This document shows, piece after piece, positions 6,645 through 50,787 of a stretch of 58,574 bases of DNA. The stretch is taken from positions 1-58,574 of the forward strand of contig CAYMZD010000002.1 in NCBI GenBank assembly GCA_964394855.1, given 5' to 3'. Both the position numbers and the translations under genes were made by a program. Under the pieces are notes generated by a model. It made no database searches. It was not told the origin of the DNA and saw only the letters and a program-made list of their open reading frames with translations. The stretch is from an uncultured Gammaproteobacteria bacterium. GTDB lineage: Bacteria; Patescibacteriota; Microgenomatia; Daviesbacterales; UBA10151. Each line of letters starts with the position of its first letter. Positions within the stretch are counted from its first letter, which is position 1.

Positions 6645-7229
6645 TTAGTGATGGATGTTTTCCAGGGGAAAATGTTTCGCCAGACCTTCTGCCCAGCGAT
6701 CTAAAAGTGTTGTTCTGGGAATTTCATGAAATGGTAAAAACCTGGCCACTTCTTTTTTGACCTCTTCAGTGTCCTGTCCGCCAGCTGGCAGACCCAAAAC
6801 TAACATTAACTGACCGGGAAAGCGGAGCAAAGTTTGAATATACAACACCCTAAAGCCCTCTTTTTCTTTAAACCAAAACGAATCCAGTTCATGCCAAAAA
6901 TAAAAATGATCTCCAATAGTGACCCCTTGGGTGGAGATTTTATAAGTGACATCTTCTGGAGGGATAAAAGCCAAAACATAACTGACAAAAGTTAAAGCCA
7001 AAAGCACTCCAATCAACAAAAACTCCCTGGCTAAAAGAGCAATCAGGATTAACAGAATAACCAAAATAGCAATAGTAGTATAATAGGAACGCTCCTTTTT
7101 CCTAAAGGGCCTGGCTGGAGCTTGCCAAGAAAGTAAAGTTTTGACCTCCCCTGCTTCTCCCACTTTGGGATAAAATTCATCTTCACTTTCTTGTTTGGTT
7201 TCAATTGGTTTAGAAAAAAACTTAGGCAT
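6645..7229 (-). CDS. Conserved membrane protein (two TM helices plus PH-like C-terminal region)
   Basis: W.AP motif, hydrophobic pair of helices, YKISTQGV.I..FY.W pattern; carries an 18-bp palindrome in frame. Confidence 0.75.
   Translation of the reverse strand: MPKFFSKPIETKQESEDEFYPKVGEAGEVKTLLSWQAPARPFRKKERSYYTTIAILVILLILIALLAREFLLIGVLLALTFVSYVLAFIPPEDVTYKISTQGVTIGDHFYFWHELDSFWFKEKEGFRVLYIQTLLRFPGQLMLVLGLPAGGQDTEEVKKEVARFLPFHEIPRTTLLDRWAEGLAKHFPLENIHH
6776..6793. repeat. Intragenic short palindrome (CCAGCTGG family)
   Basis: GTCCGCCAGCTGGCAGAC, encodes LPAGGQ on the minus strand. Confidence 0.7.
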
Positions 7230-7274
7230 TATATTAATTGTAAATTATCAATCGGCAATTGTAAATTGATTGTG

Positions 7275-7361
7275 CGGTGGGGGTGGGATTCGAACCCACG
7301 AGAAGCTTCCGCCCCTAGCGGTTTTCAAGACCGCCGCACTAGGCCACTATGCGACCCCACC
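7275..7361 (-). tRNA. tRNA-Ser(TGA)
   Basis: GCGGT-CT TGA AA-ACCGC anticodon arm, long variable arm. Confidence 0.95.
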
Positions 7362-7369
7362 ATGATAAG

Positions 7370-7456
7370 CGGAGAGGGTGGGATTCGAACCCACGATACC
7401 CTTACGGGTATAGCTCGTTAGCACCGAGCGGCACTCGACCACTATGCGACCTCTCC
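7370..7456 (-). tRNA. tRNA-Ser(GCT)
   Basis: GCTCG-GT GCT AA-CGAGC anticodon arm, long variable arm, GGAGAGG acceptor. Confidence 0.93.
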
Positions 7457-7489
7457 TTACGCACCTAATTTTACCAGAAATAGGAATAT

Positions 7490-9316: not shown

Positions 9317-9318
9317 TT

Positions 9319-14136: not shown

Positions 14137-14964
14137 ATGCTTACTGCCTTAAAAAGACTTACCCTGTTGGTATTTTTTTTGATAATCGCTTGCTTTGCTC
14201 TAGCAGAGGGAAATATTGTTTTAGGCAGAACCGAACTGGAGATAAGTGGGGATTTTGATCAACCATTCCCTCCCTACAGAATCCAAATTGGTAAAACCAT
14301 CACTCTTTCTGTCACTGATAGCTCGTGTAATCAACCAGCTACTTTAAGCTATGTGGCACTGCCCACGTCTCAACAAATCACCCTGCAGTCTCAAAGTTTA
14401 AATGTACCAGCAGAGGGATTATTAAAGTTCATCCCTGTAATTGGTGCTATTCCCAACCTGTTTAAAATATTCAACGTTTCGGGAACTAGCGCAGATATGA
14501 CGCCTACCGAACCCGGAGGTTATTATCTCTATGCTCAATGCGGCAGCTCTGGTAAAGCTGATAAAATAGATATCAAGTTTGTCAGTGTATATGATCCCAA
14601 CCCTCTACTGCCGCCTTCCCCGGTCAGTTCTTCACCGCCTGTTTCAGGGGGCGGCTTTTGCAATGCTGGTGGGGGAGTAGACAACGGCATTGATACTGCC
14701 ATAGGTTGTGTGCCAACCGATCTAACAGGCCTGATTCATGCTTTTTTGAGGTTAGCCACTGGCATAGCAGGCGGAATCGCCTTTATACTAATGGTCGCCG
14801 GTGCCTTCCAAATGATTACCTCAAGCGGTGACCCAGATACCCTTAAAAAGGGTCAGGATATGTTTAAATCTGCTGTTATTGGACTTTTGTTTATTATCTT
14901 TGCCGTACTATTGCTGCAAATTATTGGAGTTGATATACTGCAAATACCAGGATTTCAACGATGA
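14137..14964 (+). CDS. VirB2/TrbC-like pilin with large N-terminal extension
   Basis: C-terminal AG..MITS.GDP...KKG...SAVIGLL pilin motif, preceded by an exported beta-rich region. Confidence 0.75.
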   Translation: MLTALKRLTLLVFFLIIACFALAEGNIVLGRTELEISGDFDQPFPPYRIQIGKTITLSVTDSSCNQPATLSYVALPTSQQITLQSQSLNVPAEGLLKFIPVIGAIPNLFKIFNVSGTSADMTPTEPGGYYLYAQCGSSGKADKIDIKFVSVYDPNPLLPPSPVSSSPPVSGGGFCNAGGGVDNGIDTAIGCVPTDLTGLIHAFLRLATGIAGGIAFILMVAGAFQMITSSGDPDTLKKGQDMFKSAVIGLLFIIFAVLLLQIIGVDILQIPGFQR

Positions 14965-15275
14965 AAACTTTAAGCTTACAACTACCTGGTGGTCAAACTA
15001 TCACAAGCCCTCAAACAAAATTTAGCGATTTAGGTAGTTTTATTTCCGGCCTTTATGAAATCGTCTTTTATTTAGCTATATTCTTGGCTTTCTTCTGGCT
15101 GGTATGGGGAGCGTTTCAATATATCGTAGCCGGCGGCAACAAAGAAAACTTGGCCAAAGCTAGCGCCAGAATAACCTGGGCTATTGTGGGTTTACTGCTA
15201 GTGGCTGTTGCTTTTTTAATAGCTCAATTCGTGGGACAAGTATTACAGCCAAAAATATCAACACCAATCATATGA
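14961..15275 (+). CDS. VirB2/TrbC-like pilin
   Basis: WGAFQYI.AGGNKE...A.ARITWAIVGL. Confidence 0.8.
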   Translation: MKTLSLQLPGGQTITSPQTKFSDLGSFISGLYEIVFYLAIFLAFFWLVWGAFQYIVAGGNKENLAKASARITWAIVGLLLVAVAFLIAQFVGQVLQPKISTPII

Positions 15276-15583
15276 GAAAATTAACCATAACGTTGGCAGC
15301 GGTAGATATTGGACAAAGTTATGCTTTTGGTGATGTCTTGACTTTGGGTGAGGGCGTTCAAAGACTGGTGGCTCCCACCTTTTCCATCGCGGCAGCGGTG
15401 GTGGTGATATATTTTTTAATCGGGGCTTTTAAATATTTAACTTCTGGGGGGGATAAAGAGGCTATTGGTGGAGCTTACAGGATGATAACTCATGCCGTCA
15501 TTGGTTTTGTGATTTTAATATTTGCCTTTTTAATTTTACAGTTTATTCCACAAGCCTTTGGTATTAGATTTTCCATATTTTAA
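15272..15583 (+). CDS. VirB2/TrbC-like pilin
   Basis: GAFKYLTSGGDKE..A..MIT.AVIGF. Confidence 0.8.
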   Translation: MRKLTITLAAVDIGQSYAFGDVLTLGEGVQRLVAPTFSIAAAVVVIYFLIGAFKYLTSGGDKEAIGGAYRMITHAVIGFVILIFAFLILQFIPQAFGIRFSIF

Positions 15584-15585
15584 AT

Positions 15586-16062
15586 ATGAAAAAATTGCTT
15601 TTGACACTTACTTTAATTTTAATCTTAACCCCTGGTTTGAGTTTGGCTGCTTCGTATGGTGATCAGTGCACTAAACCCAGTGACTGCCCTAGTGATTCTG
15701 TTTGTCAACCATCTAAAGCAGATGCTAATATCTTTCTGTGTAGTCCATCCCTGCCCACCCCGGTGAGTGTTTTTGGGAAAATTATCCCCCCTCAAGCAGT
15801 AGAGGATTTAGGTATTGGGGGGACTGGCATCAGTCAATTTTTAAGTAATCTGGTAAAACTGATCTACATTGTTGCCACTATTGTATTTATCTTGATGATT
15901 GTGTGGGGAGCTTTTGAATGGCTAGTTTCCGGCGGAGATAAAGATAAGGTAGCCTCTGCTCAAAGAAGGCTCACCAACGCCTTTATAGGAATAGTTCTTT
16001 TTGCGGTGGCTTTTGCTATTTTGAAAGTGGTGGGGACATTTACTGGCTTTAACTTCTTTTAA
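15586..16062 (+). CDS. VirB2/TrbC-like pilin with Cys-rich N-terminal module
   Basis: C.KPSDCPSDSVC..C, then WGAFEWLVSGGDKD..AQ.RLTNAFIG. Confidence 0.8.
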   Translation: MKKLLLTLTLILILTPGLSLAASYGDQCTKPSDCPSDSVCQPSKADANIFLCSPSLPTPVSVFGKIIPPQAVEDLGIGGTGISQFLSNLVKLIYIVATIVFILMIVWGAFEWLVSGGDKDKVASAQRRLTNAFIGIVLFAVAFAILKVVGTFTGFNFF

Positions 16063-16072
16063 ATTATGCCAC

Positions 16073-16110
16073 TTGACAAGCTGCAGGGAATTTTCCTATG
16101 ATGAAAGGAG
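16073..16110 (+). promoter_or_regulatory. Internal sigma70 promoter and SD in the pilin array
   Basis: TTGACA, 18 nt, TATGAT, then AGGAG before ATG 16114. Confidence 0.6.
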
Positions 16111-16113
16111 AAT

Positions 16114-16428
16114 ATGAATCCCAGCAACATCACCATCACTCCTCCTCCACAAGGGTACAAGGATTTTGGCAACTTTCTTTCTAATCTCTTGACTCTGGCT
16201 TTTATCTTGGCCATTATTATTGTGCTTTTTATGTTAGTTTGGGGAGCAATTCAATGGATTTTATCTGGTGGTGATAAGGATGCAGTCAAATCAGCCCGCG
16301 AGCGAATTATCCATGCCTTGGTTGGTTTTGCTATTTTGGCAGTGGCTTTTGCTATAGCCAAGTTGGCTGGTACTTTTCTTGGTTTCCAAGATATCTTTAA
16401 TTTCACTATTCCCTCTCCTTCTCCATAA
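16114..16428 (+). CDS. VirB2/TrbC-like pilin
   Basis: WGAIQWILSGGDKD..A.ERIIHALVGF. Confidence 0.8.
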   Translation: MNPSNITITPPPQGYKDFGNFLSNLLTLAFILAIIIVLFMLVWGAIQWILSGGDKDAVKSARERIIHALVGFAILAVAFAIAKLAGTFLGFQDIFNFTIPSPSP

Positions 16429-16442
16429 GCTACTTATAAGAT

Positions 16443-16733
16443 ATGTCTCCAGACCCCGCCGGTTTAACTCAAATTGAAAAGATATTTGAAAATATCATCT
16501 CTTCCTCTGTAGCTTTAGCATTTATCGCTTTAGTGGTCATACTGGTATGGGCTGGAATGAAATTTTTAACTTCTGGGGGGGAGGCTAAAGCCATTCAATC
16601 TGCTCAACAAACTGTGACTTGGGCCATTTTGGGGATGGTTTTTTTGGTGGTGGCTTGGCTTATTTTACTGCTAATTAAAGCTTTTACTGGTATAGACGTG
16701 ACCCAATTTTGTATTAGTCTTGACGGCTGTTAA
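16443..16733 (+). CDS. VirB2/TrbC-like pilin
   Basis: WAGMKFLTSGGEAK..AQQTVTWAILG. Confidence 0.8.
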   Translation: MSPDPAGLTQIEKIFENIISSSVALAFIALVVILVWAGMKFLTSGGEAKAIQSAQQTVTWAILGMVFLVVAWLILLLIKAFTGIDVTQFCISLDGC

Positions 16734-20577: not shown

Positions 20578-21295
20578 TCTGACCATAGTAGATATTAGAG
20601 AGGATATTGTCCTGCTAAAAGATGGGGGGGCAGCTCTAGTCTTGCAAACAACAGCTGTCAATTTTGGGCTTTTGTCCGAGATTGAACAAATGTCCATTAT
20701 TACCGCCTTTGGTCAGATGTTAAACTCACTATCTTATTCCATCCAAATAATTATTCGCTCCAAAAGACTTGATATCAGCTCTTATTTGGGTTTATTGGAT
20801 AGGGCCTTAAAATTGCAAACTAGCCCCCTATTTTCACAACTGATGGCCAGATATAGACAATTTGTCCAATCTTTAATCAAAGAAAAAGAGGTGTTGGATA
20901 AAAATTTTTATGTAGTCATTCCTCTTTCCCGTTTTGAGCTGGGGATTCGAATCACTAGCGCTGATAGATTAAAAAAAAGCGTGGCTATGTTACAGCCTAG
21001 AAAAGATCAGATAGCCAAACAGTTGAGTAGGGTAGGTTTAAAAGCTACTCAACTGGGCAATAAAGCTCTATTACAACTTTTTTACGACATCTATAATCCT
21101 CCAGATAACAATCAGCTCTTTTTACCAACTACCAACTTAGCTACTCCTGGCTTATCACTCAATATTCCCCAAACAGCCCCCCCACCACCCCCACCACCAA
21201 TAGCTAAACCTTTACCAGACCAACCCCCTCCCATCATCAGCCAATCATCAAAAACCCACCCCTTTGTGGTGGAAGAGTTAGCAGATACCTTATGA
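20558..21295 (+). CDS. VirB4-associated (TraC N-terminal-like) protein
   Basis: DIREDIVLLKDG..VNFGLLSE.EQ..LNSL pattern directly upstream of the ATPase; Pro-rich tail. Confidence 0.65.
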   Translation: METTQTNLTIVDIREDIVLLKDGGAALVLQTTAVNFGLLSEIEQMSIITAFGQMLNSLSYSIQIIIRSKRLDISSYLGLLDRALKLQTSPLFSQLMARYRQFVQSLIKEKEVLDKNFYVVIPLSRFELGIRITSADRLKKSVAMLQPRKDQIAKQLSRVGLKATQLGNKALLQLFYDIYNPPDNNQLFLPTTNLATPGLSLNIPQTAPPPPPPPIAKPLPDQPPPIISQSSKTHPFVVEELADTL

Positions 21296-23082
21296 AATTA
21301 AACATCTTTGCCAAGTCCCAAATCAGCCAAGAAAGCCCCACTCCTCAACTAACCGTCAAGGATGTATTGGCACCTCCAGAGATAGAGATAGATTTCAATC
21401 ATCTAAGAATTGGTGATAACTTCTACAGAACTTATTTCATGTCAGGATACCCACGTTTTGCAGAACCAAATTGGCTAGAACCATTAATTTCTTTTGACCA
21501 CCCCTTAACCGTTTCTATGTTTATCTATCCCACCCAGTCTAAGGGGGTGTTAGATGATTTAAAAAGAAAAGTTGCCGAAATGGAAGCCACCATTCAAACC
21601 GACATTGAAAGAGGCAGGGTGGTTGATCCGGCAGTACAAGTGGCCTTGGATGATGCCCAATCCCTACAAGAACAACTGGTAAAAGGGGCAGAAAGGTTTT
21701 TTGACTTTGCACTTTATGTGACCATACCAGCTCAAAGCAAGGAACAACTCAACAATGTCTCTAAATTAATTGAAAGTACTTTAAGCTCTTTGTCAATTAC
21801 ACCAAAACCTACCACTCTTCAAATGGAAGATGGTTTTATCACCACCTTACCTATTGGACAAGATCAACTGACTTTAACCCATAACATGGATACTACCTCC
21901 CTAGCCACCACTTTTCCTTTTACTTCATCAGAGCTAACAGCCAATGAAGGAATTATGTATGGTATTAACGAGCACAACGGCTCCTTAATACTATTTGATC
22001 GCTTTACCCTGGAAAATTCCAATGAGGTAGTTTTTGCTAAAGCTGGCGCTGGTAAAAGTTATTTAGTGAAGTTAGAGGTGCTTCGCTCCCTCATGTTTGG
22101 CACGGAAATTTTGGTTATTGATCCGGAGGCAGAATATTTACCCCTTTGCCAGGCAGTGGGAGGACAATATGTTAACTTCTCCACCTCCTCTCCTGTCAAA
22201 ATTAACCCTTTTGATATGTCGGGAATTTTAGTTCCGGGAGAGAACGAGTTAGGTAGAAAGATCCTTTCTCTCACCTCTTTTTTGAAATTGGTTTTGGGAA
22301 ACTTAAATCCCACCGAAAGTGCTGTTTTAGACAGAGCCTTAAAACAAACTTATCACCTAAAAGGCATCACTGACGACCCCAAAACTCAAATAAGCTCACC
22401 AGCTGGCTCGCCTCGCGAAGCTGGCGAAGCGGGCGGACCGCCCTTAATGGAAGATTTGTATAAAGTTTTAATCGGCATGGAGGAAAAAGTGGCGCTAGAT
22501 TTGGCAGAGCGACTAGAGAGATTTGTTAAAGGGTCTCTCTCTGGTATCTTTTCTTCTCCCTCGAATATTACCTTAACCAACTCTTTTACTGTTTTTTCTA
22601 TTCGGGATGTGGTAGAGGAACTGCGACCTTTAGCCATGTATATGATTTTGGAGTTTGTCTGGACAAAAATTCGCTCCAAGCTTAAAAAAAGAATTTTAGT
22701 GGTGGATGAAGCCTGGTATTTAATGAGAACTGAAGATTCTGCCAATTTTTTAATAGACATTGCTAAAAGAGCCCGCAAATATTACTTGGGGCTGATAACT
22801 ATTACTCAAGACGTGGAAGATTTCTTAAGTAGTGATCGGGGCAAAGAAATCATTTCCAACTCCTCAATTCAAGTGCTGTTAAAACAATCACCTGCCTCAA
22901 TTGACAGAATAGGAGAAGTTTTTTATCTCTCTGAAGGAGAAAAAAGATTGCTTCTTTCGGCTGGTGTGGGACAGGGACTTTTCTTTGCCGGACCAACACA
23001 TGTAGCCATGTCTGTGGTGGCATCCCCTGAAGAACACCAGCTGGTTACCTCTAATCCGGCAGACATACTGGCCCGTCAGTAA
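21292..23082 (+). CDS. virB4: VirB4-like ATPase
   Basis: Walker A AKAGAGKS, VIDPEAEY, INPFD, Walker B ILVVDEAW, KRARKY, ITQDVEDF. Confidence 0.92.
   Translation: MKLNIFAKSQISQESPTPQLTVKDVLAPPEIEIDFNHLRIGDNFYRTYFMSGYPRFAEPNWLEPLISFDHPLTVSMFIYPTQSKGVLDDLKRKVAEMEATIQTDIERGRVVDPAVQVALDDAQSLQEQLVKGAERFFDFALYVTIPAQSKEQLNNVSKLIESTLSSLSITPKPTTLQMEDGFITTLPIGQDQLTLTHNMDTTSLATTFPFTSSELTANEGIMYGINEHNGSLILFDRFTLENSNEVVFAKAGAGKSYLVKLEVLRSLMFGTEILVIDPEAEYLPLCQAVGGQYVNFSTSSPVKINPFDMSGILVPGENELGRKILSLTSFLKLVLGNLNPTESAVLDRALKQTYHLKGITDDPKTQISSPAGSPREAGEAGGPPLMEDLYKVLIGMEEKVALDLAERLERFVKGSLSGIFSSPSNITLTNSFTVFSIRDVVEELRPLAMYMILEFVWTKIRSKLKKRILVVDEAWYLMRTEDSANFLIDIAKRARKYYLGLITITQDVEDFLSSDRGKEIISNSSIQVLLKQSPASIDRIGEVFYLSEGEKRLLLSAGVGQGLFFAGPTHVAMSVVASPEEHQLVTSNPADILARQ
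22395..22437. repeat. Intragenic palindromic element in virB4
   Basis: GC-rich in-frame segment (SPAGSPREAGEAGG); its reverse complement matches the rnhA insert at 29 of 31 nt. Confidence 0.85.
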
Positions 23083-24796: not shown

Positions 24797-25221
24797 AAAA
24801 TAATCTAAAAATTATCATATTTATAATAATACTTGCGCTAGTTGGTTTTGCCTTCAAACAAAAACAGCCAGCAGTTGTGCCCACCCCACAGGATGAATTA
24901 GAGATTATCTCCACCACTCCCCACCCCCTTGAGGAGGCCACTATTTTACCAACTCAAAGCATTGAAGTTACTTTTAACAAGCCCTTGTTCGTGAGTGAAT
25001 TCAAACATAAATTTGACCCCGAAATAGAACACCAGGTAGAAGCGATAAATAGTCAGTCTACCAACTTTGGTCAAACACTTAGAATAGTCTTTACCAAACC
25101 CCTACAACTGGGCAGCGGCTATACCCTGTTTATTCTGCCTAACACCCACAGTGAAGATGGTCTAAAATTGGGGCGGGATGTTATCTACCACTTCAAAACC
25201 ATTGACTATCGTGGGGTTTAA
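24793..25221 (+). CDS. Exported Ig-like (Big_5/SbsA-type) domain protein
   Basis: N-terminal TM, IISTTP, IEVTFNKP, L..GSGYTL...FKT. Confidence 0.7.
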   Translation: MKNNLKIIIFIIILALVGFAFKQKQPAVVPTPQDELEIISTTPHPLEEATILPTQSIEVTFNKPLFVSEFKHKFDPEIEHQVEAINSQSTNFGQTLRIVFTKPLQLGSGYTLFILPNTHSEDGLKLGRDVIYHFKTIDYRGV

Positions 25222-26797: not shown

Positions 26798-26809
26798 ATT
26801 TATCAACAA

Positions 26810-26956
26810 TTCATTCGATTATACACTATTTTTTAAAACAGTAGTATTATTTATATAGTCGGTGGATATGTGGAAAACTATTAATTTCTTATTTAGAATT
26901 CGCCTTAATTTTGTGTTGAAATGATGTTTAAAAAAGGTGGATAATTTGTGGATAAG
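26810..26956. other. Putative oriC, downstream of dnaA
   Basis: AT-rich gap with TGTGGATAA (26947-26955), GGTGGATAA (26936-26944), TGTGGAAAA (26869-26877), GGTGGATAT (26861-26869). Confidence 0.8.
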
Positions 26957-28312: not shown

Positions 28313-28330
28313 GTGGATAACTTATACACA
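28312..28330. promoter_or_regulatory. DnaA boxes upstream of dnaA
   Basis: TGTGGATAA (28312-28320) and TTATACACA (28322-28330) back to back. Confidence 0.8.
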
Positions 28331-31662: not shown

Positions 31663-32105
31663 AACTGATTATTTATACAGACGGAGCTTGTCGTGGTAAT
31701 CCTGGTCCCGCCTCATATGGTTTTACCATTAGCAGTGAAGAGGGTAAGTTGCTTCATGAGGAAGGTAAGTTTATCGGGGTGACCACCAATAATGTGGCCG
31801 AGTATACAGCTGTTCTGGAGGCTCTCAAGCATGCCCAACAGGAGTATGCTCCGCCTGCTTCGCCCGCTTCGCGAGGCGAGCGAGGTGAGCCTGCTGGCGG
31901 ATTGGAGATTGAACTTTACGCTGATTCCAAGTTGGTGGCAGAACAGTTATCAGGCAGGTATAAAATAAAAAACCCCAGGCTAAAAGCTATTTTTGAACAG
32001 ATTAAGATACTGGAACTGAACATAGGTAGGGTATTTTATAATCATATTCCCCGTTTTAAAAATACCCTGGCTGACAAACTGGCCAATCAGGCTCTAGATA
32101 AGTAA
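31659..32105 (+). CDS. rnhA: Ribonuclease HI family protein
   Basis: YTDGACRGNPG, TNNVAEY.A, DSKLV.EQ, HIPR..N..AD.LAN. Confidence 0.95.
   Translation: MKLIIYTDGACRGNPGPASYGFTISSEEGKLLHEEGKFIGVTTNNVAEYTAVLEALKHAQQEYAPPASPASRGERGEPAGGLEIELYADSKLVAEQLSGRYKIKNPRLKAIFEQIKILELNIGRVFYNHIPRFKNTLADKLANQALDK
31850..31901. repeat. Intragenic palindromic element in rnhA
   Basis: TCCGCC...GGCGGA termini with a nested hairpin; encodes PPASPASRGERGEPAGG. Confidence 0.88.
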
Positions 32106-35965: not shown

Positions 35966-38098
35966 TTATTTTGTGCTTACAGGCCACTGTGTTACCATAA
36001 TGCTTTTGCCGGTATGTGGAAGACGTTGCCATAATTCCTCGGTTATAAAAGGCATAAAGGGATGAAGCAACTCTAGGCAGGTTCGAAAAACATATTCCAG
36101 GGTTGGTTGAGCTTCGCTTCGTCGCTCTTTTGATTTTTCAATATAAATATCGGCAAATTTATGCCAGATAAATTCATATAGAGTCTCCGCAGCTAAATGC
36201 AATTTAAATTCTTCCAGATTTTTGGTAACTGACTTTATGGTTTTATTAAGTTCATCCATGATCCACTGGTCATCGGAATGTTTCATTATTGACACGGCCG
36301 TGTCAATATTGTTATGTTCAATGATAAACTTGGCAATGTTCCAGAGTTTGGTAGTAAAATTTCTAAAATTTTTAGCCCTTTCGTCCATGGTTTCCCTGGA
36401 AGCTCTGCCATCCCGTCCGGGAATGGCATAAGTATATAAAGCCATTCGTGTAGCATCTGTACCCCATTGGGCTCGTAGCTCATTAGGATCAATACCGTTT
36501 CCCAAAGATTTGGAAAACTTGCGTCCCTGCAAATCCCGCAGCATGCCATGGAAAAACATATTTTTAAAGGGAACTTCATCTTTAAACCAAACTCCCAACA
36601 TGATCATTCTGGCAATCCATAGATATTTAATTTCCGGGGCAGTAATTTCAAAATCCCAGGGATAATATTTTTTAAGCTCGGCGGTATCGCTGGGCCAACC
36701 CAAGGTCGAGAGCGGCCAAAGACCAGATGAAAACCAGGTATCTAAAACTTGGCTCTCTTGGACCCAATGTTTTTGAGAGCAAGTCTGGCAATTTTTACCC
36801 GGTTCATCCAAAGAAATTACCATGTCCTTGTCTTTGCCAACCAGATGATTGGGGTTGCACTTTCCACAATACCAGACAGGGATGCGGTGGCCCCACCAAA
36901 GAGAACGGGAGATTGACCAATTGTGGACTTCTTTAATCCAGTTGGATAAAATCTTCAAATAGTTTTTGGGGGCAAAATTTATTTTGCCGATATTTTTAAG
37001 GGCTTTATCTGCCAAGGGTTTCATTTTGACAAACCACTCCTCGGAAATTAGAGGTTCGATAGTGGTTTTACAGCGCTCACAAACAGGTACGGAATGAGTG
37101 TATTTTTCTGTTTTTTCAATTTTATCTTTCAAAACTTGAACTGCTTTTTCCCGAGCCTCCATAATTTTTAAGCCGGTAAGATTTGGATCTAAGTCAGTAA
37201 TTCGTCCATCTTTGCCAACAACATGTAAAATAGGTAAGTTGTGGTCTTTACCAATTTCGAAGTCTAATAAATCATGGCCCGGGGTAATCTTCAGCGCTCC
37301 TGTCCCAAAACCTTTTTCTACTCTTTTGTCTTCAATAACGGGAATTTCAGTATTAGTAAAAGGATTTTTTGCCTTTTTACCTAAAAATTTGGCATATTGG
37401 GGATGGCGGGGGTAAATGGCAATAGCAACATCAGCAGCAATGGTTTCCGGTCTGGCAGTGGCTATACTAATATATTCATCTGTTCCGACTATTTTATATT
37501 TAATAAAATACAATTTTTCTTTTCGCTCGTCATATTCCATTTCCACATCTTCAATTGCTGTGTTGCATTTGGGGCACCACTGGACAATATAGGCCCCCTT
37601 GTATAGCAGATCTTGATCCCAAAAGGTTTTAAATTCTTCCAAGACCGCCTTTTGTACCTTTTCTTCCAACGTAAAAACTTCCCTGTCCCAGTCGGCCGAT
37701 AATCCAAAAACTGTCCAGGTGCGATGAAATGATTGATAAACCTTATCTTTAAATTTCCACGCTCGTGCTAACCATTTATCTCTACCAAGTTTTTGTTTAT
37801 ATAATCCTTCTTTGGAAAGAATTTTATCTAGTGTGCTTTCAAAAGCAATCCCAGCATGGTCAACTCCAGGGAGGAGCAGAACGTCATATCCTTGCATTCT
37901 TTTAAAGCGGGCAATGGCGTCCATAATGGAATGTTGCATGGCATGGCCTAGATGCAAATCACCAGTTAAGTTAGGCGGGGGAACTAATAATCCATAGGGA
38001 GGGCTTAAGGAGTCAGGATTTGCTTTAAAAAAACCTTGATCTTCCCAAAATTGGTACCACTTTTCCTCAACTTGACTGTGACTGTATTGTTTATCCAT
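35966..38098 (-). CDS. valS: Valine--tRNA ligase
   Basis: PPPNLTG.LHLGHA, DHAGIA, ISRSLWWGHRIPVW, DTWFSS, KFSKSLGN. Confidence 0.96.
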   Translation of the reverse strand: MDKQYSHSQVEEKWYQFWEDQGFFKANPDSLSPPYGLLVPPPNLTGDLHLGHAMQHSIMDAIARFKRMQGYDVLLLPGVDHAGIAFESTLDKILSKEGLYKQKLGRDKWLARAWKFKDKVYQSFHRTWTVFGLSADWDREVFTLEEKVQKAVLEEFKTFWDQDLLYKGAYIVQWCPKCNTAIEDVEMEYDERKEKLYFIKYKIVGTDEYISIATARPETIAADVAIAIYPRHPQYAKFLGKKAKNPFTNTEIPVIEDKRVEKGFGTGALKITPGHDLLDFEIGKDHNLPILHVVGKDGRITDLDPNLTGLKIMEAREKAVQVLKDKIEKTEKYTHSVPVCERCKTTIEPLISEEWFVKMKPLADKALKNIGKINFAPKNYLKILSNWIKEVHNWSISRSLWWGHRIPVWYCGKCNPNHLVGKDKDMVISLDEPGKNCQTCSQKHWVQESQVLDTWFSSGLWPLSTLGWPSDTAELKKYYPWDFEITAPEIKYLWIARMIMLGVWFKDEVPFKNMFFHGMLRDLQGRKFSKSLGNGIDPNELRAQWGTDATRMALYTYAIPGRDGRASRETMDERAKNFRNFTTKLWNIAKFIIEHNNIDTAVSIMKHSDDQWIMDELNKTIKSVTKNLEEFKLHLAAETLYEFIWHKFADIYIEKSKERRSEAQPTLEYVFRTCLELLHPFMPFITEELWQRLPHTGKSIMVTQWPVSTK

Positions 38099-38467: not shown

Positions 38468-38530
38468 AAAATAAAACAGCCCATATGGGCTATTTAGAGT
38501 AATTTTATAAGTAAAATTTTAATGTGTCAA

Positions 38531-38550
38531 CCCTTCAACTTCGCTCAGGG
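38531..38550. repeat. Short palindrome (CCTGAGC..CGAAGG family) abutting the tsaD stop
   Basis: CCCTTCAACTTCGCTCAGGG; related to 43634-43652 and 50667-50685. Confidence 0.7.
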
Positions 38551-39594
38551 CTAGTATGCCAGGGATAAGTTGGGATTGGCTTGTAATTTTAAAGGATCCT
38601 TAAGTGGTTTCCCCCAAAAAGCCGCTGCAGCTATCATGGCCGCATTATCGGTACATAAATAAGGGGGTGGAACATGTAGTTTAACCCTTAATTCTAAATT
38701 CTTAATTCTTAATTCTAAATCAGAAACTAGTTTCTGATTTGCAGCTACTCCTCCTGCCACCATAATTTGTTCAACATGATAAGTCTGGGTTGCTCGAATA
38801 GTTTTTTCCACCAGCACATCCACTATGGCCTGTTCAATAGAGGTAGCTAAGTTGCATTTCACCTTTGAGGTGTAGCTGCTTTTTTTCGCCTCGAATGTGT
38901 GTATTAGATTAGCCACGGCTGTTTTTAATCCGGAAAAAGAAAAATCCCAGCCAAAGGCTGGTCGTCCTTTGGACGAAATCATGGGTCGGGGAAGGTCAAA
39001 GGCCCCAGGATCCCCATTTTGGGCTAGTTTAGAAATCTCTGGACCACCAGGATAGGGTAATCCCAAAAGCCTGGCGCATTTATCAAAACACTCACCAGCT
39101 GCATCATCTCTGGTTCCCCCAAGGTATTTATATTTGCCATGATCCTGAAATAAGACCAAATCAGTATGGCCCCCGGAAACCAAAAGGCCAATGCAGGGAA
39201 ATTGTGGTGTTACACTTTGAGCGATCCAATTAGCATAAAAATGTCCAATTAAATGATTTACAGGGATTAATGGTTTCTGCCATACCAATCTTAAAGTTTT
39301 GGCAGTTTCCACTCCCACCAGGAGTGATCCAATCAGCCCTGGGCCATAGGCTACTGCAATAGCATCCAGTCCGGTAGGACTGCACTGAGCCTGTTGAAGT
39401 GTTTCCTCAATCACTGGAATAATAGATTTAATCTGTTCCCGGGCTGCTTGCTCGGGAATAACCCCACCATATTTAGCTTGTAGGGAAGCACTTGAAGCCA
39501 CCACATTGGATAAAATTTGTATTCGGCCGTTTTTCTGTTGTAAAACAGCCGCCCCGGTTTCATCACATGTGGTTTCAATACCCAGAATTATCAT
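38551..39594 (-). CDS. tsaD: tRNA threonylcarbamoyladenosine transferase subunit
   Basis: GIETTCDETG, GPGL.GSL, VNHLIGH, VSGGHT, DDAAGE.FDK, FSFSGLKT, CTDNAAMIA. Confidence 0.97.
   Translation of the reverse strand: MIILGIETTCDETGAAVLQQKNGRIQILSNVVASSASLQAKYGGVIPEQAAREQIKSIIPVIEETLQQAQCSPTGLDAIAVAYGPGLIGSLLVGVETAKTLRLVWQKPLIPVNHLIGHFYANWIAQSVTPQFPCIGLLVSGGHTDLVLFQDHGKYKYLGGTRDDAAGECFDKCARLLGLPYPGGPEISKLAQNGDPGAFDLPRPMISSKGRPAFGWDFSFSGLKTAVANLIHTFEAKKSSYTSKVKCNLATSIEQAIVDVLVEKTIRATQTYHVEQIMVAGGVAANQKLVSDLELRIKNLELRVKLHVPPPYLCTDNAAMIAAAAFWGKPLKDPLKLQANPNLSLAY
38682..38721. repeat. Heptamer tandem repeat inside tsaD
   Basis: (T/A)AATTCT units in tandem, encoding LELRIKNLELRV. Confidence 0.8.
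38947..38976. repeat. Intragenic twin-hairpin element in tsaD
   Basis: CCAGCC-AAA-GGCTGG followed by TCGTCC-TTT-GGACGA; 30 bp, in frame. Confidence 0.85.
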
Positions 39595-40833: not shown

Positions 40834-42786
40834 ATGCCTACGATAAAGCCTAATAAATCAGAAGAAATAATTGGTGAAATCTTTAAGGATCAGGAGACAG
40901 TGTATGGTCTTAAAGAGTTTGAAGGCATAGATATTTATGACGTTTTGCATATCAGTGAGCAAGAACCGCACCGTTTTTACATTAAGGATCTAAAAACAGG
41001 CAACCAAAGATTTGTCTACGATGAGCAAAAAAAGACCGGCAAACCTGAGGAAATAGTCCGCCAGCTTTGGCTTTATAAATTGCATCACCAGTATCTTTAT
41101 CCCCTTGACCGCATTGATCTTGAAAAAAGCATACATTTTGGACGTGAAGTTCATACAAAAGCCGCGGATATCGTGGTTTATAAAAAAGACAAGATTACGC
41201 CTTACATCATTGTCGAAGTGAAAAATCCCAATGAGAAAAAAGCAATAGATCAATTAAAGAGTTACTTAAATTCAGAAGGGTGCGAAATAGGAGTTTGGTC
41301 AAACGGAGTAGAGAAAGTTGTTTTATATCGCCCATATCCTAAAGAATTTGAAGATTCCCTGGTTGATATCCCAAGAGAAAATCAGACTATAGATGATCTT
41401 TTTGAAATCAAAAGGAAATGGTCTCAGCTTAATCCCAAATTTGATTTTGTGGAAATTGTTAAACATATAGAGGAATTGGCTCTTGCAGGTTCTGGAGCTA
41501 ATGTTTTTGAAGAAATCTTTAAGATACTTTATGCAAAGCTCTATGATGAAAAACTTGCGAGGGAAAGAAGGGAAGGTGAAGAGGTACTTTTTAGAAAATA
41601 CAAAGACCCTGAAAAGACATATGAAATAATTAACGACCTGTTTAAAAACGCGATAAGAGAGTGGCCCGATACTTTTGAATTATCGGATAGAATTAGGCTA
41701 TCTCCTGTTAGACTTAATGTCTGTGTGCCATTCTTGGAAAATGTCAGACTTTTCGAAGTTGGCCAAGGTGAACTTGAAATCATAGACAGCGCATTTGAGT
41801 ATCTTATAACGGAAGTTTCTAAAGGAAAGAAGGGTCAATATTTCACGCCACGCCATGTTATTAAGATGTGCGTCCGCATACTTAACCCAAAGGATAATGA
41901 ATATGTAATTGATCCTGCCTGCGGGTCTGGAGGGTTTCTACTCCACACCATGTACCATGTTTGGGAAAATCTCCACACAGAAGCAGCCAAAAGAGAATAT
42001 GCTGGCCGCTACCTTTTTGGAGTGGACTTTGACGATAATATGCGTCGTATTTCTCAAGCCCTTATGCTTATTGCGGGTGACGGCAGACACCATATTTTTA
42101 AAAGGGATTCTTTGGATGCTAGAGACTGGCAGGGAGTGGAAAGCGAAGATGCGAGAGTTGCCCTAAGAACGCTTACACACAGATTTGAAAACTCATCAGA
42201 AGAAAAAGAAAATCAAATTTCTTACCGGTTTTTAGATTTTGATGTTTTGCTGACCAATCCTCCATTTGCGGGAGAAAACCCAGAATCCGGTCTACTTCGC
42301 CAGTATGAACTTGCTAAAAAAGACGGGAAGTTGCGAAACAATGTAGAGCGCCACATTCTTTTTATTGAACGATCACTAGATGCGATTAAACCGGGCGGAA
42401 GATTAGCGATAGTTCTACCACAGGGGGTTTTAAACAATACCAATATGGAATATATCAGAAATTGGCTGTTTGAAAAAGCCAGGATTTTGGCGGTAGTTGG
42501 TTTGCACGGGAATACATTCAAACCTCACACCGGCACAAAGACCTCCGTGTTATTTTTGCAAAAATGGGACGAGAAAGAAGAGCCTCTAAAAGATTATCCC
42601 ATTTTTATGGCGGTTTCCAAAAAAGGCGGCAAAGATAATTCCGGGGAATACATTTACAAGAAAGACGATAAAGGAAATTATGTACATGATAGTAAAGGTA
42701 GAAAAGTTTTAGATCATGATTTAGATGAAATAGCGGATAGGTTTATCGAATTTGCCAAAAAAGAAGGATTTAGTTTTTGGAGGTAA
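40834..42786 (+). CDS. Fused restriction endonuclease and N6-adenine methyltransferase (type IIG/IIB-like)
   Basis: N-terminal PEEIVRQ..ADIVV..IVEVK nuclease domain; GQYFTPR, DPACGSGGFL, NPPF motifs. Confidence 0.92.
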   Translation: MPTIKPNKSEEIIGEIFKDQETVYGLKEFEGIDIYDVLHISEQEPHRFYIKDLKTGNQRFVYDEQKKTGKPEEIVRQLWLYKLHHQYLYPLDRIDLEKSIHFGREVHTKAADIVVYKKDKITPYIIVEVKNPNEKKAIDQLKSYLNSEGCEIGVWSNGVEKVVLYRPYPKEFEDSLVDIPRENQTIDDLFEIKRKWSQLNPKFDFVEIVKHIEELALAGSGANVFEEIFKILYAKLYDEKLARERREGEEVLFRKYKDPEKTYEIINDLFKNAIREWPDTFELSDRIRLSPVRLNVCVPFLENVRLFEVGQGELEIIDSAFEYLITEVSKGKKGQYFTPRHVIKMCVRILNPKDNEYVIDPACGSGGFLLHTMYHVWENLHTEAAKREYAGRYLFGVDFDDNMRRISQALMLIAGDGRHHIFKRDSLDARDWQGVESEDARVALRTLTHRFENSSEEKENQISYRFLDFDVLLTNPPFAGENPESGLLRQYELAKKDGKLRNNVERHILFIERSLDAIKPGGRLAIVLPQGVLNNTNMEYIRNWLFEKARILAVVGLHGNTFKPHTGTKTSVLFLQKWDEKEEPLKDYPIFMAVSKKGGKDNSGEYIYKKDDKGNYVHDSKGRKVLDHDLDEIADRFIEFAKKEGFSFWR

Positions 42787-42788
42787 GA

Positions 42789-43595
42789 ATGCTAGAACGT
42801 ACATTTATTCAAAAATGGAGAACTTTTTTAAGTATTATATTTTCTCCAGGTTCCATTATCCCATTTATTTTATCAGCCTTATGTTTGTTTTTAGCAATAT
42901 CTGTTTTTACAGGTGCTCTATCTAGTCTGCTATCAATATTTGCTTCTATTTTAACCGCTATAGCAGGATTTTTTGTAAAAGAGGATTGGGATAGAGTACA
43001 AGGTAATACAATGCTAGAGAAAAAGGGACGATCTGCAATCAGGAATCTTGGATCAATTGAGCAACAAATTATTCAGATAAGAAATTGGATTAAGAATTTT
43101 CTAGGAAGTAAGAATATAACTGAGAGGGAATTAAAAGAAATTGATCGTCACCTTACTACTACTCAAATGAATATTAAATCTGGGTTAGAAGACTGGATAG
43201 ACATAGTGCCTGAATTGAAGAAAAAAGAAGAATTCGCAAAAAAATATCAAGAAACATTAGAGGCTAATATGGAAGAGCTTTTAAAAAAAGAAGCTGAACT
43301 ATTAAAAATTGGGGAAACAAATAAGGAGCTAAAAGTACAACTAGAAAAGAGGATAAAAGAATTAGAGAAACGAGTACAAGAGTTGAAAAGCGAACAATCA
43401 AATGTGTTTGGTGGACTTATGCCTTCAACCTCCCCATATTCATTCGTAACTATCTCACCATCAGGTTCTGGTACGCTATCTAATTTACTTCCCAAGACTT
43501 GTTCAATTTGTGGAAAGGTTTACAAGGATGACAATAGTCCAACTATTTCCCTAAATGATGTGTGCCCAGAATGCAAAAGACGGGGTAGAGATTAG
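42789..43595 (+). CDS. Hypothetical protein: two TM helices, coiled coil, C-terminal zinc ribbon
   Basis: GGAGGT SD, hydrophobic N-terminus, heptad-rich region, CSIC..CPEC. Confidence 0.8.
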   Translation: MLERTFIQKWRTFLSIIFSPGSIIPFILSALCLFLAISVFTGALSSLLSIFASILTAIAGFFVKEDWDRVQGNTMLEKKGRSAIRNLGSIEQQIIQIRNWIKNFLGSKNITERELKEIDRHLTTTQMNIKSGLEDWIDIVPELKKKEEFAKKYQETLEANMEELLKKEAELLKIGETNKELKVQLEKRIKELEKRVQELKSEQSNVFGGLMPSTSPYSFVTISPSGSGTLSNLLPKTCSICGKVYKDDNSPTISLNDVCPECKRRGRD

Positions 43596-43670
43596 ATGAT
43601 CAACTTTTCCATAATCCAAAAATCTCAACTTGATGGTTCGACAGGCTCACCACAAGAGGAGCACATATGA
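43596..43670 (+). pseudogene. Vestigial specificity-subunit N-terminus
   Basis: MINFSIIQKSQLDG resembles MITYSIIKRSELEG of the downstream S gene; diverges at a palindrome. Confidence 0.65.
43634..43652. repeat. Short palindrome (TGAGCCTG.CGAA family)
   Basis: TGGTTCGACAGGCTCACCA. Confidence 0.75.
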
Positions 43671-45025
43671 TTACTTATTCGATAATCAAAAGGAGTGAGT
43701 TAGAGGGGGTTTTGCGGCTGGATGCGGAATATTACCAGCCGGAATATTTTATTGATTTCAGCAAAGGCAATTGGTTGCCAATTAGGGAAACTTTAGAAGT
43801 TTGCCAGTATGGAATATCTAAGGACATGAATGAAAATGGGATAGGGTTTCCTATTTTTAGAATGAACGACATTAAAAATGCTTTCCTTGCTGAAGATGAA
43901 TTAAAATATGCAGATATACCTGATGACCTTTTAGCAGAATATAAACTTGAGAGAGATGACATACTATTTAATAGGGTAAACGCAGAAGAATTTGTTGGCA
44001 GGACAGGAATAGTTAAACTAATTGATCATTTTGTTTTTGCTTCCTATCTAATTAGATTACGTACAAAAAAGAATGGAATTATAAAGCCTGATTATCTAAA
44101 TATTTTCTTAAATTCAAGTTATGGTATTAAACAAATAAGAAAATTTAGAAGACGTGCAGTAAATCAAGCTAATGTAAATGCTGAAGAACTAAAACAAATA
44201 AGAATCCCTGTTTTATCGCTAAACATTCAGGAAGAAATCAGTAAATTATCAAATGAATCATGGAATCAAACAGAACAGTCGAAATCTTATTACCAACAGG
44301 CCGAGAACTTCCTTTTGGAGGAGTTGGGATTTAAGGACTTTCGGGTTGAAGATGATTTAAGTTTTGTTGTTAATCTTTCAGACGTAAAATCTGCAAAACG
44401 GGTTGATGCGGATTATTTCCAGCCAAAGTATCAAAAGTTAGTTGAACAGATTGAAAAACATAATGCAAAACTACTTGGTAATTTAGTTTCGATGAAGAAA
44501 GGTTTTGAGCCGGGAAGTGAGGCATATCAAGAAGAAGGTAAACTTTTCATTAGAGTTAGCAGTCTCTCTAAATTTGGCATTGAGGATAAAGATCAAAAAT
44601 ATTTAAGTGATGATTTATACGGAAAACTTAAGGTAAACTTTGAACCAAAAATAGGCGAAATTTTATTAACAAAGGATGCAACTCCTGGTATAGCCTATGT
44701 TTTAAAAGAAGCAGTAGAAGGAATAATATCTGGGGGAATGATGAGATTAAAGGTAAATAATGATATTGACCCAGAATATCTAGCTTTATGTATAAGTTCT
44801 TTAACTGGTCAAATGCAAGCAGGAAGAGATGCAGGAGGATCAATAATAGCTCATTGGAAACCAGAACAAATCAAGAATTTATTAATTCCAGTTCTACCAA
44901 AACCCACCCAACAAAAAATTGCAGAGTTGGTCAGGAAATCCCATGAAGCAAGGAAGAAATCAAAGCAGCTTTTAGAAGAGGCAAAAAGAAAAGTTGAAGA
45001 AATGATAGAGGAGAAATCAAATTAA
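43667..45025 (+). CDS. hsdS: Restriction-modification specificity subunit with two TRDs
   Basis: RLDAEYY and RVDADYF repeats, FASYLIRLR, YLNIFLNS, L.IP.L..QQKIA. Confidence 0.9.
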   Translation: MITYSIIKRSELEGVLRLDAEYYQPEYFIDFSKGNWLPIRETLEVCQYGISKDMNENGIGFPIFRMNDIKNAFLAEDELKYADIPDDLLAEYKLERDDILFNRVNAEEFVGRTGIVKLIDHFVFASYLIRLRTKKNGIIKPDYLNIFLNSSYGIKQIRKFRRRAVNQANVNAEELKQIRIPVLSLNIQEEISKLSNESWNQTEQSKSYYQQAENFLLEELGFKDFRVEDDLSFVVNLSDVKSAKRVDADYFQPKYQKLVEQIEKHNAKLLGNLVSMKKGFEPGSEAYQEEGKLFIRVSSLSKFGIEDKDQKYLSDDLYGKLKVNFEPKIGEILLTKDATPGIAYVLKEAVEGIISGGMMRLKVNNDIDPEYLALCISSLTGQMQAGRDAGGSIIAHWKPEQIKNLLIPVLPKPTQQKIAELVRKSHEARKKSKQLLEEAKRKVEEMIEEKSN

Positions 45026-49905: not shown

Positions 49906-49935
49906 TATTTCATTATTAAATCAATAAAAGATATA

Positions 49936-50787
49936 ATGCAAGAGATGATTGCCAAACAGGAGAAAAAATTTGTGAAAAATGCCCTTTTTTTATCCCACAC
50001 CTCGATGCATGATTTTTTAAATTGTCCCCGAGCATATTACCTAAAAAACATTTATCGTGATAAAAAAACCGGCTATAAATTGCAAATTGCCTCGCCACAT
50101 CTTTCACTGGGATCAGTTGTTCATGATGTGATTAAATGGTTGTTGGAAATGCAAAGGCAAGTTAGTAAAAAACAACTCTTGGATAGATTTGATAATTTTT
50201 GGCTAAAATACAGCGGTAAAAGAGGGGGATTTATTTCCAAGGAAGAAGAGGAAAGTTTTAAGGCTCGGGGCAGAAAAATGATGGAGAGCTTTTATGAAAG
50301 CAGTAAAATCCTAGGGAAAATGATTCCCCCCATGAACTTTCCCAAATACTTTTTAGATGAGGATTTAGTTTTGACGGGTAATTTGGACTATGTGGAGGAG
50401 CTACCTGATGGCAGTTTGCATGTCATTGATTTTAAAACCGGCACTAAAGATGAGCAGTCAAATTTACAACTTTATTTATACGCTATTCTGGCTGAATCTA
50501 ATTTAGGAAAACCTGTTAAAAAGTTAAGCTTTTGGTATCTTGATAGGAGTTCAACTCCTGATGAAGTGGTGTTGGATTCCCTGGAAGAAAAGCTGGAGTA
50601 TTTAAAACAAAAAGGTCGGGAAATTAAAAAAGCCATTGAAACGGGTGAGTGGGTTTGCTCGAAGAGCCCTGAGCCTGCCGAAGGATGTTTTGACTGTCAA
50701 GCTTATCAGGCCATAATAGAGGGTAAAGGAGAGTTTCAATTCGAGGATGACAGATACAAAAAAGTAGTATATTTTTTACCTAAATGA
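49936..50787 (+). CDS. PD-(D/E)XK nuclease family protein (RecB-like)
   Basis: LSHTS..FLNCPR, GSVVHD, G.LD, VIDFKTG, QLYLY. Confidence 0.88.
   Translation: MQEMIAKQEKKFVKNALFLSHTSMHDFLNCPRAYYLKNIYRDKKTGYKLQIASPHLSLGSVVHDVIKWLLEMQRQVSKKQLLDRFDNFWLKYSGKRGGFISKEEEESFKARGRKMMESFYESSKILGKMIPPMNFPKYFLDEDLVLTGNLDYVEELPDGSLHVIDFKTGTKDEQSNLQLYLYAILAESNLGKPVKKLSFWYLDRSSTPDEVVLDSLEEKLEYLKQKGREIKKAIETGEWVCSKSPEPAEGCFDCQAYQAIIEGKGEFQFEDDRYKKVVYFLPK
50667..50685. repeat. Intragenic palindrome (CCTGAGCCTGCCGAAGG)
   Basis: Encodes PEPAEG between C-terminal cysteines; same core as 43634-43652 and 38531-38550. Confidence 0.75.

Follow-up and report, generated by a model that had tools for sequence, protein, structure and literature searches.

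This locus raises the question whether short GC-rich palindromes lying in frame inside conserved genes are peculiarities of each gene or copies of a repeat that spreads as DNA. The DNA concerned is contig CAYMZD010000002.1 of assembly GCA_964394855.1, of which positions 1 to 58,574 were analysed (this whole stretch is called the window). The best matches of the window proteins are proteins of Candidatus Daviesbacteria/Microgenomates, in the candidate phyla radiation (CPR). The gene content comprises a replication-origin neighbourhood (dnaN, dnaA, rpmH-rnpA-yidC), a type-IV-secretion-like cluster, a type I restriction-modification (R-M) system, several tRNAs and tmRNA/SmpB. CPR genomes are regarded as streamlined and repeat-poor, and their proteins often carry unexplained lineage-specific insertions. 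In our reading the palindromes are probably dispersed, non-autonomous GC-rich hairpin repeats of 16-53 nt, which would spread as DNA in Daviesbacteria/Microgenomates and of which the intragenic copies would be translated as loop extensions.

The DNA examined consisted of the window and 10 kb past its left end on the same contig, together 68.5 kb. Six syntenic Daviesbacteria loci formed the comparison set; labels of the type L0xx and L1xx denote loci from other genomes or contigs, L132 being GCA_016176405.1. An initial annotation of the window had listed three families of palindromes, A to C, and every quoted string was confirmed at its position. All five coding copies keep the reading frame. 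The background, described there as AT-rich, has 39.8% GC and is thus moderately AT-rich only, although the sites are indeed GC-rich relative to their surroundings.

Two long copies carry most of the evidence from the window itself. The first (composite c1, 22396..22437) is located inside a VirB4/TraC-like ATPase gene (21292-23082, plus strand) and the second (c2, 31850..31901), inverted relative to c1, inside the RNase HI gene (31659-32105, plus strand). A scan for GC islands returned 22394-22446 and 31848-31900 as the longest in the window, with 53 nt each and 72-75% GC; the next measured 34 nt. The two sites are the top inverted pair of the window in a repeat finder (38 nt at 89%, 22400-22437 against 31850-31887), and blastn-short aligned 32 nt at 94% identity (E = 1e-8) between unrelated flanks.

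Both copies are built from two palindromes. The outer one, pal-1, is the 16-nt palindrome TCCGCCAGCTGGCGGA, of which the halves form the ends of c2 and which is split in c1 as TCACCAGCTGGC ... GGA. The inner one, pal-2, is an imperfect palindrome of 9-nt units, (CTCNCCTCG)1-2 followed by (CGAAGCNGG)2, and is related to the perfect palindrome GCTCGCTTCGCGAAGCGAGC. In c1 the left part of pal-1, TCACCAGCTGGC (22396-22407), is followed by a pal-2-type insert, TCGCCTCGCGAAGCTGGCGAAGCGGGC (22408-22434), and by the right end GGA (22435-22437). In c2 the ends TCCGCCTGC (31850-31858) and TGCTGGCGGA (31892-31901) enclose a pal-2-type core of 9-nt units (31859-31891); on the minus strand c2 reads AATCCGCCAGCA, GGCTCACCTCGCTCGCCTCGCGAAGCGGGCGAAGCA (the inner, pal-2 part) and GGCGGA. 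Pal-2 sits at one and the same place in c1 and c2, after CCAGC(T/A), near the centre of pal-1. The translation of c1 is S369-G382 of SSPAGSPREAGEAGGPPL and that of c2 P65-G81 of APPASPASRGERGEPAGG. The initial annotation had joined these two sites and a third, 6777-6792, into Family A with the core TCCGCCAGCTGGCGGA. The virB4 and rnhA sites are related and the third site is a pal-1 copy, but the contiguous core occurs at 6777-6792 only, and TCCGCCAGCTGGCGGA was rejected as a family definition since an in-window search returned this site and a c2 end with 3 mismatches only. Family A is better described as a nested composite of two palindromes.

Aligned with orthologues, both copies appear as insertions. 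The VirB4-like ATPase has 13 extra amino acids; 119 out of 119 best orthologues (73-80% identical) lack them and have 2-6 residues at the loop. RNase HI has 13-15 extra amino acids, absent in 118 of 119 orthologues, while the 119th (P0042) has an insert of another type, B, in this loop. The segment from helix A to strand 4 of RNase HI counts 45 residues in the window protein against 29-35 in these 118 (30-32 in 111 of them), and an alignment with PDB entry 3U3G leaves a 13-aa gap at the insert. The alignments with orthologues proposed in the initial annotation gave the same outcome for VirB4, RNase HI, the membrane protein, TsaD and the nuclease discussed below, the repeat peptides being gaps in relatives. 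Orthologues from distant lineages with the same peptides and without palindromic DNA were not encountered, nor did the cores occur at chance level.

Structure predictions place the inserts in loops. The AlphaFold model of RNase HI has a mean pLDDT (the local confidence score of the model) of 91.7 with a sole weak stretch, residues 61-80 (block means 61-77), corresponding to the loop between H44-63 and E82-88, helix A to strand 4. The insert is thus predicted to occupy a surface loop without disrupting the fold. For VirB4 the pLDDT is below 50 at residues 369-380 in a model that is weak overall (mean pLDDT 60.9), making its loop position a local and suggestive reading. Of the mapping onto structure foreseen in the initial annotation, the RNase HI part is clear and the VirB4 part suggestive only.

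Folded as single-stranded DNA, the minus strand of c1 and the plus strand of c2, which is the equivalent orientation, fold best (z about -2.7). The cumulative GC-skew minimum of the window lies at 26-28 kb, and the origin region (dnaN, dnaA, rpmH-rnpA) at about 25200-28500. Since c1 and c2 are mutually inverted and located on opposite replichores flanking this minimum, both point the same way with respect to the movement of the fork, an observation on two copies only that serves as a lead rather than a result.

Pal-1 was also found on its own. The window copy TCCGCCAGCTGGCAGA (6777..6792), one mismatch from a perfect palindrome, is located in a conserved membrane protein gene (6645-7229, minus strand). 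It codes LPAGG within G-LPAG-G-Q, where most of the 120 orthologues read G-x-Q. These 4 extra amino acids are sporadic in orthologues: a scattered minority has GPPAGGQ and others have GPSTSSGQ(G), the DNA being GGT CCG CCA GCT GGC GGA CAA in L135 and GGT CCT TCG ACA AGC TCA GGA CAA GGG in L134. In 188 kb of Daviesbacteria DNA, six occurrences of pal-1 with at most 2 mismatches were located at four non-orthologous loci, namely the TsaD C-terminus of L132 (AAT CCG CCA GCT GGC GGA CC), the VirB4 loop of L007, KhpB of L132 and the membrane-protein loop (window, L133 and L135). The L132 TsaD copy is a perfect TCCGCCAGCTGGCGGA, translated as an NPPAGG insert, and has the same AAT...CC flanks as the L007 VirB4 loop. 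The lineage-unique inserts of L132 KhpB comprise a compensated pal-1 variant, TCCGTCAGCTGACGGA, and a perfect 22-nt palindrome, TGCTCGCTTCGCGAAGCGAGCA, which is the perfect form of pal-2. At unrelated loci pal-1 has the same rare codons, CCG (12% of Pro) and GGC (22% of Gly).

Pal-2 is read in four frames, as SPREAGEAG, PASPASRGE, LRPLRPLRE and LASRSEQSG. In a metagenome scan with a 19-nt pal-2 core, the matches listed were mostly chance matches in high-GC DNA, and at least three low-GC contigs (L040, L093, L084) were informative, their pal-2-type units being either in frame (GPREAGEA; LRPLRPLRE) or present several times on one contig. A scan of IMG/VR returned one chance match in a 63% GC contig for a pal-1 20-mer and none for a pal-2 20-mer.

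The B motif, GTCC-TTCGACAAGCTCA-GGAC, is a small stem-loop with three copies in the window. The first, CCTTCAACTTCGCTCAGGGC (38532..38551, plus strand), is intergenic and lies 3' of tsaD, which is on the minus strand, with a 1-nt overlap with the tsaD stop codon. The second, TTCGACAGGCTCACCAC (43637..43653, plus strand), is intergenic as well and lies 14 nt upstream of the S-subunit gene (43667-45025) of the type I R-M system. The third, TCCTTCGGCAGGCTCAGGGC (50666..50685, minus strand), is located inside a PD-(D/E)XK nuclease gene (49936-50787, plus strand) and codes SPEPAEG; the spacer between the conserved cysteines is 3 aa longer here than in 26 relatives. Compared with each other, these sites share a 9-mer or 12/13 nt, which is at chance level, so Family B of the initial annotation could not be upheld from the window, but all three match the motif from other genomes. 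The TsaD gene of L130 carries the B-type insert TCC TTC GAC TCC GCT CAG GAC (SFDSAQD), to which 38532-38551 is identical at 17/20 nt (0.00 expected), and the first 23 nt of the B-type insert in P0042 RNase HI match window positions 38527-38550 at 20/23. The weakest member is 43637-43653, with 3 mismatches in 17 nt and 0.05 expected.

Apart from its intergenic copies, B is read in four frames (PSTSSGQ, LRQAQD, FDSAQD and PEPAEG). Its 19-mer CCTTCGACAAGCTCAGGAC was found at 67 IMG/VR loci (L137-L203, virus-classified), compared with 0 for the reversed control. These contigs span 32-71% GC, share the extended consensus GTCCTTCGACAAGCTCAGGACGAACGG and often have a closing stem CCGTTC...GAACGG; in low-GC contigs B occurs in frame at protein N-termini, e.g. 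as ILRQAQDK or NPSTSSGQD. Eight B-motif loci had no credible match in Rfam 15 at E<=0.1, and over the window Rfam 15 yielded only tRNAs and tmRNA at gathering score. As a separate observation, P0361, a relative of the PD-(D/E)XK nuclease (61% identical to 49936-50787), has a 7-aa GLPAGRQ-type insert that lies elsewhere in the protein and is similar to the peptide of pal-1.

On the evidence of the window by itself, non-randomness can be demonstrated for the virB4/rnhA pair only, since the other in-window similarities are chance-level 8-13-mers. The similarity of the 6776 site to the long copies is limited to 9-mers (E about 9), and blastn-short with c1 and c2 over the window gave no further copies, the remaining matches being chance 8-11-mers. 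The additional 10 kb of contig contained no further copies either. Probes taken from other Daviesbacteria loci matched the window exclusively at the sites of the initial annotation. Matches of 20-mers were obtained at 6775-6794 and 31884-31903, at 22406-22425 and 31862-31881, at 38532-38551 and at 50666-50685, with 0.00 expected each in 100 shuffles, and a 17-mer match at 43637-43653 with 0.05 expected; in all, five patterns had an expectation of 0.00 and one of 0.05. In syntenic genes, 28 lineage-unique inserts of at least 3 aa were found; several are GC-rich and/or hairpin-forming (p<=0.01 against 200 same-gene controls), and the window VirB4 and TsaD inserts are among the significant ones. 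Perfect hairpins are enriched in relatives (L132, 10 against 2.1 +/- 1.4; L009, 7 against 1.0 +/- 0.8), and the finding is of greater interest at the lineage level than in the window, where copies are few.

By comparison of their sequences, the repeats are homologous at the DNA level: they occur in more than one frame and in either orientation, and B is also found between genes. The same loops were hit independently by different families in different species, RNase HI by the composite or B and the membrane protein by pal-1 or B. We propose that the repeats of the window belong to three families, pal-1, pal-2 and B, which in Daviesbacteria/Microgenomates would spread as DNA from site to site and from genome to genome. 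The repeats nest and expand in 9-nt steps; pal-2 would grow by slippage of its CTCNCCTCG/CGAAGCNGG units, and c1 and c2 are pal-1 with pal-2 inserted near its centre. Inside genes, copies may survive for three reasons: stop codons are rare in GC-rich sequence, only copies with a length that is a multiple of three would persist, and they would be tolerated only in permissive surface loops. The survivors would be translated as short loop extensions of Pro, Ala, Gly, Ser, Arg and Glu, presumably neutral passengers rather than functional peptides. The hairpin shape, small size, both orientations and lack of target duplication would fit mobilisation by an HUH/Y1 enzyme or recombination at hairpin tips. 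We favour, as a guess, that the hairpins are moved as single strands ('peel-and-paste') by an HUH/Y1 enzyme acting in trans (IS200/IS605-like, or a REP-associated tyrosine transposase, RAYT); the alternative mechanism would be recombination-based copying into existing hairpin tips.

Several observations weigh against this proposal. Copy number in the 68.5 kb is low, 6-7 (two composite, one pal-1 and three B), with four to five intragenic. No transposase, integrase, RAYT or other candidate mobilising gene was found in the 68.5 kb, no target-site duplication was discernible at the junctions and no filled and empty alleles were observed within one population. The window has 7 short perfect GC hairpins where shuffles have 4.2 +/- 2.0, which is no significant enrichment. 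A 22-nt pal-2 core gave one chance match in the GTDB species representatives, in a Propionibacteriaceae contig of 71% GC, the source genome evidently not being one of these representatives. Pal-1 was seen solely in the PPAGG frame; the complementarity of Pro and Gly codons could be its origin. All data are metagenome-assembled genomes (MAGs) or metagenome contigs. The initial annotation had spoken of a mobile family reshaping housekeeping proteins; of this, the recurrence across genes, genomes and frames above chance stands. As no mobilising enzyme was found, and as the tsaD hairpins and possibly pal-1 could come from local inverted duplication, active mobility is what we infer, together with the mobilising mechanism and the neutrality of the peptides.

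An unlikely alternative is that each repeat arose locally and nothing moves: template switching and slipped-strand duplication would create the palindromes de novo, and their likeness would follow from the complementarity of Pro (CCN), Gly (GGN) and Ala (GCN) codons. One case is tsaD (38551-39594, minus strand), which at 38947..38976 holds two adjacent hairpins with 6-bp stems, CCAGCC-AAA-GGCTGG and TCGTCC-TTT-GGACGA. They fold with z=-3.5 and with a minimum free energy below that of all 200 same-gene control segments, and an insert of 5 aa is found at their position (ISSKGRPAFGW, where two syntenic orthologues have IDSD-D and KGIK-G). The insert DNA CCAGCCTTTGG is the reverse complement of the neighbouring CCAAAGGCTGG, and the hairpins may belong to no family but stem from a local inverted duplication of CCAAAGGCTGG. 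In VirB4, GGC GGA stands next to the native codons for Pro-Pro, CCG CCC, giving GGGCGGACCGCCC, which looks like a local inverted duplication too. Pal-2 consists of tandem 9-nt units, and the restriction of pal-1 to the PPAGG frame is compatible with local duplication or with a strong selective filter; the unenriched hairpins of the window point the same way. Local template switching thus plausibly created some hairpins, and it may be a source of new families. As a general explanation it is opposed by the identical 20-mer with its non-palindromic AAT...CC flanks in unrelated genes of different genomes, by the 32 nt common to c1 and c2 despite unrelated flanks, by pal-2 and B in four frames, with B in intergenic DNA as well, and by the B 19-mer identical at the 67 loci of the viral collection against none for the control.

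Spread as DNA, as we propose, might also proceed without an enzyme, by ectopic gene conversion or templated break repair between GC palindromes that share microhomology, e.g. the PAGG-coding CCAGCTGGCGGA; hairpins would then grow from their tips and homogenise. We judge this improbable. The common position of pal-2 in both long copies speaks for it, and so does the lack of a transposase anywhere nearby. The history of the VirB4 loop agrees as well: many VirB4 orthologues carry NPPAGG there (AAT CCG CCA GCC GGC GGA CC in L007), and since pal-1 was already present at this loop, pal-2 entered an existing palindrome. RNase HI orthologues, in contrast, have neither pal-1 nor pal-2 at the site, so there the composite or pal-1 must have arrived de novo. 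The cross-phylum identity of the B motif is also left unexplained by enzyme-free copying.

Another reading, in which selection acts on the peptides and favours flexible Pro/Ala/Gly-rich linkers, so that similar DNA and high GC are side effects, is largely refuted and very improbable. It agrees with the composition of the inserts, in which P, A, G, S, R and E, all with GC-rich codons, abound, and with their location in loops. In L008 the VirB4 loop still reads PPAGG although its DNA, CCA CCG GCA GGC GGT, is a poor palindrome, which shows that a palindrome, once inserted, can decay without loss of its peptide. One DNA sequence read in four frames gives unrelated peptides, however, and the intergenic copies at 38532 and 43637 and the identical rare-codon strings add to this. 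Because pal-2 and B are each found in four frames, and B between genes, spread at the DNA level rather than peptide selection would be the cause of the similarity. An artefact of assembly or sequencing, conceivable for a MAG, is hardly credible, since the NCBI MAG GCA_016198205.1 (JACQIZ010000003.1) and three Logan assemblies, independent and from different runs, encode the identical 148-aa RNase HI. The frame is kept by the inserts, and related copies are present in many unrelated assemblies.

A wider generalisation of the proposed spread as DNA is tentative. GC-rich hairpins of 16-25 nt may form an unrecognised class of mobile DNA, mobilised by an enzyme not yet linked to them; the B stem-loop, identical in contigs of 32-71% GC with virus-classified ones among them, would be an example. 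Such hairpins would move between genes, genomes and phyla, enter existing hairpin tips by preference to form nested composites such as pal-1::pal-2 and be a major source of lineage-specific loop insertions in CPR housekeeping proteins; we regard this as possible rather than probable.

Among known systems, the Rickettsia palindromic elements (RPE), to which the initial annotation had likened the palindromes, are roughly 100-150 bp long. The in-frame position, the location in loops and the gaps in orthologues correspond; with 16-53 nt here, the likeness is an analogy and not membership. The elements differ further in their individual sizes (16 nt for pal-1, about 20 nt for B and 42-52 nt for the composites), in being GC-rich in a 40% GC genome, in their nested architecture, in the 9-nt slippage and in the CPR host. 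RPE are palindromic repeats inserted in frame in Rickettsia genes (Ogata et al. 2002, via PMC3733652). The two systems share palindromes dispersed in frame in conserved genes and between genes, loop peptides that fit the fold, several families and a bacterial host that is host-dependent with a small genome.

Palindrome loops are insertion targets for some insertion sequence (IS) elements. Repetitive extragenic palindromes (REP) resemble the present elements as 20-40-nt imperfect GC-rich palindromes in both orientations and without target-site duplication, some being intragenic (PMC3733652); REPs entirely within open reading frames (ORFs) have been reported in several species (Di Nocera et al. 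2013, PMC3733652). The elements here share the REP-type feature of a GC-rich imperfect palindrome (single-stranded fold z -1.6 to -2.7). The REP tags GTAG/CTAC or CGTC/GACG were absent from c1, c2, pal-1 and the B copies. Copy number is low rather than in the hundreds, at least half of the window copies are intragenic, the 68.5 kb contain no RAYT gene, and pal-1 is a perfect palindrome without a loop. MITEs (miniature transposable elements of 70-300+ bp with terminal inverted repeats) were rejected, as the elements are too short and show no target-site duplication at their junctions. Membership of RPE, REP-RAYT or MITE thus fails on length, GTAG/CGTC tag, copy number and target duplication.

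The GC clusters of yeast mitochondria are optional and occur in frame in var1; the byps of Magnusiomyces reportedly interrupt the frame, and the ribosome skips them. Both resemble the present repeats as GC-rich hairpins of ~30-50 nt in an AT-richer genome, strain-optional, located inside coding genes and with a presumed gene-conversion-like spread. They differ in their organellar, eukaryotic host, byps break the frame where the copies here keep it, and no homology is expected. Mitochondrial genes of Nematomorpha contain coding inverted repeats, perfect, up to 284 bp and formed locally (PMC6649704). These too are inverted repeats in conserved coding genes with both arms translated (PMC6649704), but long and local, compared with short dispersed families common to genes and genomes. 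In the literature searched, no description of such elements was found for CPR/Patescibacteria, which is absence of evidence only.

For some CPR insertions a concrete source at the DNA level is thereby suggested: recurrent GC-rich hairpins of 16-50 nt in frame in essential genes, adding 3-15 aa; the genes affected are those of RNase HI, TsaD, the VirB4-like ATPase, KhpB and the PD-(D/E)XK nuclease. If the mobility is true, the coding-palindrome phenomenon once called unique to Rickettsia would reach a radiation that is very different and much larger, in units that are far smaller. How small a transposable or copyable unit can be would become a testable question, and annotators could spot the repeat-derived segments PPAGG, PSTSSGQ, LRQAQDK and FDxAQD in metagenomic proteins.

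Beside these families, the window contains a 55-nt direct repeat, with a left copy at 6023..6077 and a right copy at 6457..6511 that is 96% identical to it. It forms the hairpin AATTCGCC-TTT-GGCGGATT, of which 8-nt arms are common with pal-1, a doubtful relation. The initial annotation had joined this repeat to the tsaD hairpins as Family C; the hairpin pair is real and coincides with the 5-aa insert described above, and the tie between the two is a common CC-TTT-GG hairpin tip, from which a family could not be demonstrated. The copies lie directly 3' (minus strand) of tRNA-Ser(CGA) and tRNA-Arg(GCG) and bracket tRNA-Ser and a small GIY-YIG nuclease ORF, with neighbouring features at 6100-6188, 6192-6530 and 6549-6622. 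The repeat could be a terminator or processing hairpin behind tRNAs that was reused, or the scars of a GIY-YIG/tRNA cassette.

Further hairpin families, CACCTCCGAGGTG pairs and CCCCGATTAAATCGGGG, are carried by L132 and L009. TsaD of L132 (17695-18603) has two copies of an element of about 50 nt, CACCTCCGAGGTG-N23-CACCTCGGAGGTG, in two different frames in addition to its pal-1 NPPAGG, and the same pair is present in L009 at 7428-7479. A palindrome family CCCCGATT(A/G)AATCGGGG was observed in two Daviesbacteria genomes (L008, 5227-5243; L009, 2703-2719 and 7273-7289).

The perfect palindromes at 36287-36308, 34548-34570 and 51998-52013 of the window were rejected as elements, not being insertions. 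The first is a perfect 22-nt palindrome, TATTGACACGGCCGTGTCAATA, in the synthetase gene described next, where it adds no residues; the window protein is shorter than both orthologues there and the alignment is gappy. The class I aminoacyl-tRNA synthetase at 35966-38098 (LeuRS-like) has a window-specific insert of 37 aa (aa 408-444), CxxC...CxxC and zinc-ribbon-like, absent in two syntenic orthologues; it is neither GC-rich nor palindromic and represents a different kind of insertion. Six tandem T4SS_pilin (PF18895) paralogues are located at 14137-16733, upstream of the PrgI/TraC/VirB4-like cluster. An ORF at 42777-43595 (272 aa, no Pfam match) separates the R-M methylase and specificity subunits, the B copy at 43637 being just downstream of it. 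Its product has a membrane segment at the N-terminus, a region resembling a coiled coil and CxxC..CxxC at the C-terminus.

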